Below, piece after piece: positions 2,797-3,903 of a stretch of 45,146 nucleotides of DNA (position 1 is its first letter; every line of letters starts with the position of its first letter). The position numbers were made by a program, and so were the translations under genes. Origin of the DNA: Candidatus Heimdallarchaeota archaeon (lineage in GTDB: Archaea > Asgardarchaeota > Heimdallarchaeia > JABLTI01); contig JAHLVW010000093.1 in NCBI GenBank assembly GCA_019058275.1, forward strand, positions 1 to 45,146, given 5' to 3'. A model generated the notes under the pieces. The model did no database searches and had not been told where the DNA came from. It saw only the letters and a list, made by a program, of their open reading frames with translations.

Positions 2797-3815
2797 CAAA
2801 GAAGATCTTTACTCTCGAGGGAAAATTACTCTCACTAATAATTAATTCTTCACCTCTAATTAAGAAAGGGAAATGTTGGTGTAAAGTAGTTAGAAGTCTA
2901 TCATCAGAGAAGAAACCACTGAGAACTTATGTAGGGAAACTAACAAAAGGTGAACGAAAAGCACCAACAAAGCAACTAGCATACAGAGGATTCATAAGAG
3001 TCACAACAATAGACAGGGACAAAGAGAGAGGAAGAAAGAACATTATCAATTATCTCTCAAAAGATTATCTTGGCAAAAAGACAACTGAAGGATACGGAAA
3101 GGTTCAGTGGTTAAACTATAAAGAAAAAGAATACATGCAAGAAAAACAAGAACCTAAGAGAAAGAAACTAAAACTAAGGAAAGGGTTAGGACCGAATTAT
3201 CCTAAAGAATTACAAAGATTACTAATAGCATTAATGCTCCACGACTTTGTGAAAACAGAAAAACACCCAAGCAAGATATTCAAAGAAATAACCATTAAGA
3301 ACGAGGAAATAAGAGAAGCATGCCTAAATCACCACAATGGAGAAAAAAGTGAAAATTATTTACTACCAATAATAAAACACTATGATCAATTAGCAGCCTA
3401 CATCACAAGAAGAAAACCTTACAAAATGTTGACTAGATATGATTTCAATAATGGGAAAATAAATTTTAAGAAAGTTGTATATGAAATAGAAGAAAGACAA
3501 TATTCAGCTTTTAAACTTTACAACTACATCTATCACTCACTAGAATTGAAAAGAATTGTAGAATCAATGACTTATGGGTATAACAACCTTAGAAATCACT
3601 TGTTACTAATGGTTAATTTAGCAATAAATGACTACTATCAAGGAAAAATAATAATAGCAAAAGGGAAAATTGTCATTAGAAATAGCAATCAAAAGACTAA
3701 AAAATCAATCTCATCATCAGCAAACAGAAGCGGAGAAATACAAAAGAATAAAAAGACCCGCAAAAGTGCTAGAGATGCTGAGATGCATCTAATCCTTGAC
3801 CATGAACAAAGCTAA
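2790..3815 (+). CDS. Cas5-like RAMP fused to an HD nuclease domain (Cas10/Cas3-type HD)
   Basis: Gly loop YLGKKTTEGYGKV; then LMLHDFVK..H, NHH, YDQLAA HD motifs; ATG 2790 has a GGAGGAGG SD and overlaps the end of the upstream gene (stop 2794-2796). Confidence 0.72.
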   Translation: MVTKKIFTLEGKLLSLIINSSPLIKKGKCWCKVVRSLSSEKKPLRTYVGKLTKGERKAPTKQLAYRGFIRVTTIDRDKERGRKNIINYLSKDYLGKKTTEGYGKVQWLNYKEKEYMQEKQEPKRKKLKLRKGLGPNYPKELQRLLIALMLHDFVKTEKHPSKIFKEITIKNEEIREACLNHHNGEKSENYLLPIIKHYDQLAAYITRRKPYKMLTRYDFNNGKINFKKVVYEIEERQYSAFKLYNYIYHSLELKRIVESMTYGYNNLRNHLLLMVNLAINDYYQGKIIIAKGKIVIRNSNQKTKKSISSSANRSGEIQKNKKTRKSARDAEMHLILDHEQS

Positions 3816-3889
3816 CTCTGGAGAGCACATCCAACTCATAGAAAGAGAAGGCAGGGAGCATAGGCAGGGAAAAGTCGAAAAAAAGTCGA
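3766..3889 (+). other. Candidate structured ncRNA / short direct-repeat tract downstream of the RAMP module
   Basis: GTGCT(AGAG)...(CTCT)GGAGAGCAC outer pairing; inner AGATGC-TGAGAT-GCATCT hairpin; direct repeats AGGCAGGGA (3849, 3862) and AAAAGTCGA (3870, 3881). Confidence 0.3.
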
Positions 3890-3903
3890 TAGGAGACAGA
3901 ACA

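Follow-up and report, generated by a model that had tools for sequence, protein, structure and literature searches.

A conserved structured RNA at the 3' end of RAMP-HD genes in Heimdallarchaeota, a candidate partner of array-less RAMP modules

Which RNA could serve the RAMP proteins of a type III-related locus that has no CRISPR array? This question is raised by a stretch of DNA of 45,146 nucleotides (nt), contig C88 of a Candidatus Heimdallarchaeota metagenome-assembled genome (MAG), which is called the window in the following. A gene for a Cas7/Csm3-like RAMP protein and a gene for a RAMP-HD fusion protein overlap here (the first ends at 2796, the second starts at 2790), and they are directly followed by rpoE, the gene for Rpo7. 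TnpB omegaRNAs overlap the 3' end of their gene and take the guide from flanking DNA, and by analogy an initial annotation of the window had proposed a guide or scaffold RNA across the 3' end of the RAMP-HD gene, which it named Cas5-HD. A structured non-coding element is indeed conserved at this position at about 45 loci and supported by covariation, and it is close to certain that this sense-strand RNA element is real, selected and structured. As to its role, we tentatively favor the reading that window positions 3708-3903 would encode a dedicated structured RNA of about 200 nt, which forms the 3' end of an ARAMP-type module and is a candidate partner of the RAMP proteins.

The DNA following the HD gene had been described as not AT-rich, and it stands out with a G+C content of 0.43-0.46 at 3751-3950 compared to 0.17-0.24 in other nearby intergenic stretches. 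When 3640-3910 was searched at the DNA level, the segment ~3761-3895 was retrieved about 30 times in the genus, in all cases where an HD paralog ends (3'). These copies are 71-82% identical at the DNA level, whereas the HD proteins share only ~45-60% of their amino acids. A covariance model built from 26 copies found ~47 matches among 61 relatives, which are located in 10 of 11 other genomes of the same family, in one of 22 second-family genomes and nowhere else; the alignment fitted to this model comprises 42 copies. Altogether, about 45 copies occur in one Heimdallarchaeota family (f1), always 3' of a RAMP-HD paralog or a truncated remnant thereof and irrespective of the downstream gene. Because some 45 HD paralogs and remnants in front of many different genes carry the same element, it goes with the HD gene rather than with rpoE. 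When 185,579 species genomes were scanned with a sequence pattern, 28 matches were obtained, 16 of them in Heimdall or Asgard MAGs and the others scattered in bacteria in a chance-like manner; three pattern matches in viral contigs were rejected as not being the RNA element. In Rfam, a scan of 3400-4100 at E values up to 10 returned only a chance match to K10_TLS (E 0.4) on the opposite strand, and a scan of seven related loci returned only one tRNA. At orthologous loci, the whole element is 85-91% identical, compared to 43-53% at the third codon positions of rpoE. Homologous loci had been set beforehand as the place where the proposal of an RNA could be refuted, and both conserved sequence and conserved structure were found there.

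The secondary structure (Table 1) includes a long helix, P1 (CCUUGACCAUG/CAUAGGCAGGG), which encloses two small hairpins, H2 and the GAGAAGGC motif, and which is supported by covariation: all 11 of its 11 pairs show changes on both sides, and 89% of the cells are paired in the fitted alignment. In L096, the second-family copy (L, G and C numbers are our labels for loci, genomes and contigs), P1 is kept with a wholly different sequence, CCCAAGAUUGAG/CUCAAUUGGG. Upstream of P1, the inner three pairs of hairpin H(-1) covary (GC 20, AU 13; AU 24, CG 5, UA 4), in agreement with single-sequence folds. The stem of H3, degenerate in the window copy, reads CCGAG-AAGG-CUCGG elsewhere, with CCAAG/CUUGG as compensated version, and at the position of H4 a hairpin of 5-8 bp with unrelated stem sequences is found in ~30 of the 42 copies. 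The inner hairpin AGATGC-N6-GCATCT, which had been recognized from the window sequence alone, corresponds to H0 and is nearly invariant in the 42 copies, an invariance that extends to the third codon positions of the peptide D-A-E-M-H encoded here. Of the structure initially proposed, it is this hairpin that holds. The proposed outer stem (GTGCT/AGCAC with AGAG/CTCT) exists in the window copy but is not conserved, as the orthologs in G008 and G010 already have it broken and the paralogs lack it. The two consecutive pairs of 9-nt direct repeats are present (AGGCAGGGA at 3849-3857 and 3862-3870, AAAAGTCGA at 3870-3878 and 3881-3889) but are not conserved as repeats; the first pair represents the 3' strands of H3 and P1, which read AGGCUCGGA and AGGCAGAGA in most copies, and the second the two strands of H4, as TCGA is palindromic.

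In an unfitted MAFFT alignment, 82% of the cells can pair as compared to 34-42% with slid partners, and 43 cells show double changes; none of 500 shuffles reached the observed values. In the model-fitted alignment of the 42 copies, which is biased towards the structure, the corresponding values are 86% versus 30-45%, with 112 double-change cells. RNAalifold on the MAFFT alignment gave only H0 and H2, and the long helix was defined manually and then by the covariance model. The window sequence alone folds to H(-1), H0, P1 and H4 (z = -2.2). G-U pairs outnumber A-C mismatches by 87 to 39, and this excess fits an RNA of the sense strand. In addition, the H0 loop UGAGAU can pair with AUCUCA at the 5' end of the element; 95% of the cells are complementary, and both segments are nearly invariant in this subfamily. 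A pseudoknot is supported because the RNA of another subfamily, located upstream of a gene read as elongation factor 2 (EF2), has GUUUCA upstream together with the H0 loop UGAAAC, which amounts to two compensatory changes.

Table 1. Positions of the module genes and of the parts of the RNA element in the window.
Feature	Position	Strand	Remarks
Whole conserved RNA element	3708..3903	+	~196 nt; from the RAMP-HD 3' end up to rpoE
AUCUCA, proposed pseudoknot partner of the H0 loop	3708..3713	+	95% complementary in 40 copies, almost invariant
Hairpin H(-1), GCGG/CCGC here	3730..3761 (strands 3730-3733 / 3758-3761)	+	stem sequence differs among copies
Hairpin H0, AGAUGC-UGAGAU-GCAUCU	3773..3790	+	90-91% paired, nearly invariant
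Helix P1, 5' strand, UCCUUG-A-CCAUG	3793..3804	+	within the HD reading frame
Hairpin H2, GAG(C)-ACAUCCA-(A)CUC	3823..3837	+	3/4 pairs covary, including GAA/UUC and AAA/UUU
GAGAAGGC motif / hairpin H3	3844..3856	+	stem degenerate in the window copy
Helix P1, 3' strand, CAU-A-GGCAGGGA	3859..3870	+	covariation; minimum-energy fold of the copy's own sequence
Hairpin H4, GUCGA-A7-GUCGAU	3874..3890	+	hypervariable stem, A-rich loop
Shine-Dalgarno-like AGGAGA with 7-nt spacer	3891..3903	+	right end of the inserted island
Cas7/Csm3-like RAMP gene	2017..2796	+	Pfam RAMPs 3.4e-6; PADLOC Csm3 6e-6
RAMP-HD fusion gene	2790..3815	+	341 amino acids from ATG 2790; frame open from 2760
rpoE (Rpo7)	3904..4680	+	ATT codon; GTG/TTG in relatives

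As the element covers the last ~35 codons of the RAMP-HD gene, its conservation could in principle reside in a protein, namely an N-terminal extension of Rpo7 from ATG 3802, a C-terminal peptide of the HD protein or a small open reading frame. Indeed, the ATG 3802 frame is open in the source genome and was chosen as rpoE start in public gene calls, and the peptide D-A-E-M-H is conserved. However, the NCBIfam rpoE profile aligns its position 1 to I37, which corresponds to the ATT codon at 3904-3906. The extension frame contains stops in G008, G010 and G002, the indels among the copies are not multiples of three, and the HD reading frame has two alternative ends, namely TAA/TGA within P1 or, after a one-base shift, the TAG that forms part of CAUAGG. 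On these grounds, the Rpo7 extension, a small open reading frame from the conserved ATG 3802 and a conserved HD tail peptide were all rejected; because of the two registers, the conservation is not at the protein level. Further arguments against a coding role are the invariant third codon positions of D-A-E-M-H and the compensatory changes throughout the element. We regard the protein-coding explanation as largely refuted and its probability as close to negligible. The tail of the HD protein had been noted as low-complexity, which agrees with residues 309-351 being predicted as disordered (pLDDT <50). In a subfamily comprising L100, L076, L109, L074, L114 and L077, the HD frame is shifted by one base after H0 as compared to window 3791-3862; it continues across the RNA until the TAG within CAUAGG, whereby the protein gains a tail like MSNADSERATTSKKRRLGT. 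Depending on the copy, the same RNA is thus either partly coding or non-coding.

More distant RAMP-HD genes have RNAs of their own. The RAMP-HD genes of a second family (f3) are 33-36% identical and are followed by a different structured RNA with a length of ~200 nt, which is not matched by the f1 covariance model but shares with the f1 element the motif GAGAAGGCUYGGA inside a long helix. This helix was predicted de novo by RNAalifold from six sequences, and 10 of its 24 pairs are compensated. The f3 RNA (L009-L015) covers the last ~60 nt of the HD match and the 170 nt that follow it, and has the 3' end AUCCUUAA; at L010 and L012, a gene read as L7Ae follows ~80 nt downstream of it. The above-mentioned EF2 loci represent a third RAMP-HD subfamily, situated at an orthologous site upstream of the gene read as elongation factor 2 (aEF2), with again its own version of the RNA; its copies L177-L181 are G008:C83, G006:C49, G004:C155, G010:C42 and G000:C25:8000-8900. 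As the diverged subfamilies each have their own RNA version, the RNA travels with the protein family, and the neighbors read as L7Ae and aEF2 are once more housekeeping genes.

In relatives without the module at this site (G003, G006, G009), the gene order is Rpb4, DUF655, a hypothetical gene, SRP54, ~290 nt and rpoE, whereas the source genome has an island of 5.5 kb between SRP54 and rpoE that is inserted exactly at the rpoE start codon. At the right junction (3903/3904), the RNA element ends and is followed by ATT-TAC-TAC, compared to GTG/TTG-TAT-TAC at empty sites. At the left junction, the native rpoE promoter and Shine-Dalgarno sequence are kept up to ...GGUUGUGAGAAAUCC; from there, the sequence continues as part of an SNF2 helicase gene, with the microhomology TTGGTT at the join to the native rpoE leader. 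On sequence grounds, this suggests illegitimate recombination rather than a defined transposon end. The island left end (L081:3760-3860, corresponding to G000 contig C30:46790-46860) contains an SNF2-family helicase pseudogene fragment (NWL*EIQRFAPTL...) that is 85% identical to the intact 1032-amino-acid SNF2 gene on C21 (G000:C21:11030-11097). For a second island at an ESCRT-III-like locus, the left junction had to be discarded, as the native promoter matched another contig and no usable junction resulted. At rpoE, no 3' tail was seen that would be a copy of the insertion site or of the island left end.

As the element forms the right end of the island, it might act at the DNA level, as terminal site of a mobile island, namely a site for recombination or for recognition by a nuclease, with the DNA folding in single-stranded form. 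The multiple copies of the module and the presence of a LAGLIDADG-HTH gene with four of the five modules examined would be in line with this. However, the roughly two-fold excess of G-U pairs over A-C mismatches points to an RNA of one strand, the microhomology join to the SNF2 fragment provides no matching terminal repeat, and no inverted copy was seen at the left end. We therefore consider a DNA site improbable.

A stronger alternative, which we regard as possible, concerns the expression of the host gene. The element could be a cis-acting leader or expression adaptor that allows the island to insert harmlessly at a start codon and then becomes indispensable to the host gene, with or without the RAMP proteins; it would supply the ribosome-binding site and perhaps a processing or stabilizing structure. 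The only ribosome-binding site adjoining rpoE is the one in the RNA element, the native promoter and Shine-Dalgarno sequence being stranded at the far left of the island, and no oligo-T stretch is present between the HD gene and rpoE. In G008 (L022) and G010 (L023), no in-frame ATG, GTG or TTG was found between the last stop and the rpoE ATT. Rpo7, which we take to be essential, thus seems to be translated from a non-canonical codon that is preceded by a strong AGGAGA motif, as judged from the sequence. At other loci, the Shine-Dalgarno-like motif of the element stands at a fixed distance (~5-8 nt) from the ATG of the downstream genes, which were read from their N-termini as S19e, L37e, the RFC small subunit, ABCE1, an ESCRT-III-like gene, a Roadblock protein and others, and homology to empty sites of the source genome or of relatives starts at the ATG. 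A leader would also be in line with the H2 loop possibly pairing with the Shine-Dalgarno motif (AACC/GGUU versus AUCC/GGAG), for which the permutation p of ~0.05 is marginal and confounded by relatedness. On the other hand, 200 nt of pseudoknotted invariant structure are unnecessary for a ribosome-binding site, and some copies adjoin oppositely oriented tRNA genes and thus have no gene to express (confirmed by program at two loci, tRNA-like ends by eye at the rest). The EF2-locus and f3 RNAs end ~40-80 nt before the next gene, which does not fit a leader function either.

A difficulty for an RNA that depends on the RAMP proteins, and at the same time support for a leader, is its persistence where these proteins are gone. 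About half of the 42 copies are located behind 5'-truncated HD remnants (first matching residue 142 to 300) or have no detectable HD sequence. At the rpoE locus of G002 and G005, a common deletion left only the last ~52 HD codons and the RNA, and this remnant is 85-91% identical to the window, with 43-47% identity at the third codon positions of rpoE; the RNA is thus the part that was retained, and it evolves more slowly than synonymous sites. Several points weigh against an obligatory protein partnership. The remnant is 90% identical between G002 and G005, compared to 73% at rpoE third positions and 53% in the DNA just upstream; RNA cores beside truncated HD remnants are still among the best-scoring ones; and G002, G005 and G001 (69, 84 and 64% complete) have the RNA, although no RAMP gene and no HD gene of full length was found in them. 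The core is also better conserved than the proteins (see the identities given above), which speaks for a leader too, and it differs in this respect from known scaffold RNAs, which usually diverge fast. The RNA is still under purifying selection in remnant loci and in the three incomplete genomes, which argues against an obligatory partnership with the proteins. Moreover, no spacer-like variable segment was found in the RNA, and a search of the source genome for complements of its conserved single-stranded segments yielded nothing beyond copies of the element. It needs to be considered with the leader that detection by the covariance model favors intact copies. In addition, the stability of H4 is -4.3 kcal/mol in intact modules and -2.5 in truncated ones (one-sided p = 0.011, copies non-independent).

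This upkeep of H4 beside intact genes is one of the arguments for a partner of the RAMP proteins, the others being the RAMP ancestry of the proteins, the lack of an array, the co-travel of RNA and protein in three versions, and the omegaRNA-like overlap. According to this favored reading, the element would be transcribed as the tail of the RAMP/RAMP-HD operon, with read-through into rpoE. H0 with its pseudoknot and the GAGAAGG motif would form the binding platform for the RAMP proteins of the module, which derive from the RNA-binding subunits Cas5/Cas7 and lack an array as RNA source. The hypervariable stems could give each of the paralogous modules in one cell a separate identity, and the ribosome-binding site at the 3' end would keep the interrupted host gene translated. 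A role as RAMP scaffold or guide is plausible from the comparative evidence, and the direct support for a role as leader of the downstream gene is comparable. The two roles are not exclusive. We place the partner slightly ahead, because a ribosome-binding site alone leaves the 200-nt pseudoknotted structure and the tRNA-facing copies unexplained.

A third type of function could be the processing of the transcript, by a ribozyme or by a site for a host RNase that would cut the operon transcript between the HD and the host gene. The invariant unpaired nucleotides around the multi-helix junction, the pseudoknot and the location between two cistrons are suggestive of this. As the Rfam scan mentioned above did not find a ribozyme or any other family up to an E value of 10, we think that such a self-processing or host-processed RNA is quite unlikely, if marginally less so than a DNA site.

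Among the described systems, the RAMP/RAMP-HD gene pair fits the ARAMP type. ARAMP and HRAMP systems are described as array-less type III derivatives with an enigmatic mechanism (PMC8730458, PMC12669027), and the usual nucleases of ARAMPs are HNH and PD-(D/E)xK enzymes, with a distinct Cas1 in most of them (PMC8730458, PMC12669027). As in ARAMPs, the host is an Asgard archaeon (Candidatus Heimdallarchaeota MAGs), a diverged Cas7-like RAMP protein occurs with a second, type III-related one (Cas5 or Cas7), the locus has neither a CRISPR array nor adaptation genes, and a nuclease is associated, a PD-(D/E)xK gene being located inside the same 5.5-kb island as the RAMP pair. In contrast, the nuclease of the pair itself is an HD domain fused to a RAMP protein, which PMC12669027 does not name as the commonest form. 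No Cas1 is found near any module here; as the passages on ARAMPs in the two reviews speak of most of them, membership is still compatible. In these passages of PMC8730458 and PMC12669027, an RNA component is not mentioned.

The RNA itself is best compared with three other systems. The initial annotation likened it to an omegaRNA, and this layout is borne out: a structured RNA lies over the 3' end of a nuclease gene (3708-3815) and reaches the end of an inserted island beside host DNA (3903/3904), and as with TnpB and IscB there are solo or remnant RNA copies. Unlike in those systems, the partners are RAMP and RAMP-HD proteins instead of RuvC nucleases, an IS200/IS605 transposase or matching ends are absent here, and the adjoining host DNA is in every case a gene start or a tRNA. 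A type III CRISPR RNA (crRNA) carries a repeat hairpin that is cut by Cas6 and an 8-nt 5' tag. Similar features are the Csm3/Cas7-like ancestry of the protein and the succession of the H4 hairpin, a short conserved tag-like motif and locus-specific sequence, whereas the element differs in having one copy per module without a repeat-spacer array, in the lack of cas6, and in the resemblance of the tag-like motif to a ribosome-binding site. It is also unlike the repeats of the source genome, which end with ATTGAAAT; that the element is itself a CRISPR repeat was rejected, since it is unrelated to these repeats and single in each module. Finally, homing elements, such as inteins and group I or archaeal introns with LAGLIDADG enzymes, likewise choose conserved essential targets (here rpoE, RFC, ribosomal protein genes, EF2 and tRNAs) and leave the host gene functional, and a LAGLIDADG gene travels with the module. 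However, there is no splicing here, the island being located before the start codon and replacing the ribosome-binding site, and among the more than 25 copies of the LAGLIDADG-HTH family, the majority occur without a RAMP module.

A guide taken from the rpoE flank, as initially suggested, would fit the anatomy of the locus and the choice of conserved essential genes, which homing elements choose as well; a copy of the target site inside the RNA was not found. Carried to its end, this idea would make the module a homing element with an RNA guide, which had evolved from the effector of a type III CRISPR system. The RNA would be processed after H4 so that it retains the initial bases of the host gene (rpoE in the window) as a built-in guide; RAMP/RAMP-HD would attack island-less alleles, with the tag-like motif discriminating self from non-self as in type III systems; and repair would copy the island before start codons of essential genes, where the ribosome-binding site of the RNA keeps the host gene alive. 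Taken as one joint claim, this scenario is unlikely.

Independent of the outcome, ARAMP and HRAMP systems kept RNA-binding RAMP proteins and nucleases while losing the arrays, and the covariation-supported RNA is a concrete candidate for their partner. The placement of modules exactly at start codons or tRNA ends of essential conserved genes, together with a replacement ribosome-binding site, is an unusual insertion strategy, and this replacement would explain why the RNA outlives the proteins. Should the RNA guide the nuclease, the module would be a compact RNA-guided system derived from class 1; should it only be a leader, it would represent a new and widespread cis-regulatory RNA of Asgard housekeeping genes.

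Concerning the proteins of the module, homologs of the RAMP gene product in Heimdall MAGs carry a RAMP/Csm3 annotation. In the RAMP-HD protein, the N-terminus is RAMP-like, whereas the C-terminal part forms a helical domain in which an H-D and an H-H motif are invariant; the invariant residues are H161, D162, H169, H191, H192 and D209. The predicted fold of the N-terminal part resembles Csm3/Cas7 RAMPs, with weak matches to chains of Csm3/Cmr and of type VII Cas7 (best E 9e-4, TM-score 0.37). RAMP-HD is a multi-copy gene with 11 matches in the source genome, comprising full copies and fragments, and up to 16 in relatives, and tblastn identified six pairs of RAMP and HD genes in the source genome. 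No CRISPR array is present on the module contigs. Repeat arrays of the source genome are restricted to the contigs C4, C26 and C68; they are ordinary arrays at C4:1-300, C26:16250-16956 and C68:4000-4449 with two repeat types that have the same 3' end. Cas1 is absent from all modules of the source genome and was found only on C26, C76 and C48, where the Cas1-like match on C48 is weak and located in a frame of 623 amino acids ~2 kb from a pair of PD-(D/E)xK and LAGLIDADG genes.

Some further observations concern the host genes. At RFC loci without the element (L126-L132), the element-type motif AGAAGGUUA is still found before the ATG, and some of them have AAAGGCAAUAGAAAA further upstream, which faintly resembles the 3' strand of P1; these sites may be very old and almost erased remnants. 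The rpoE gene of G005 (L031 / L052, G005:C33) lacks ~45 codons of the S1 domain region and matches only residues 9-133 and 180-224, which is either a real deletion or an assembly fault. The LAGLIDADG-HTH gene is divergent and located upstream of the RAMP gene in the above-mentioned four modules of the source genome, in three of which a MazE-like gene is also found there. Proteins of the LAGLIDADG-HTH family, which are encoded in the window at 25-1668 (-) and 36684-38138 (-), have more than 25 paralogs in the source genome; several of these are paired with a PD-(D/E)xK gene, most are located away from RAMP modules, and they may constitute a separate mobile or regulatory family.

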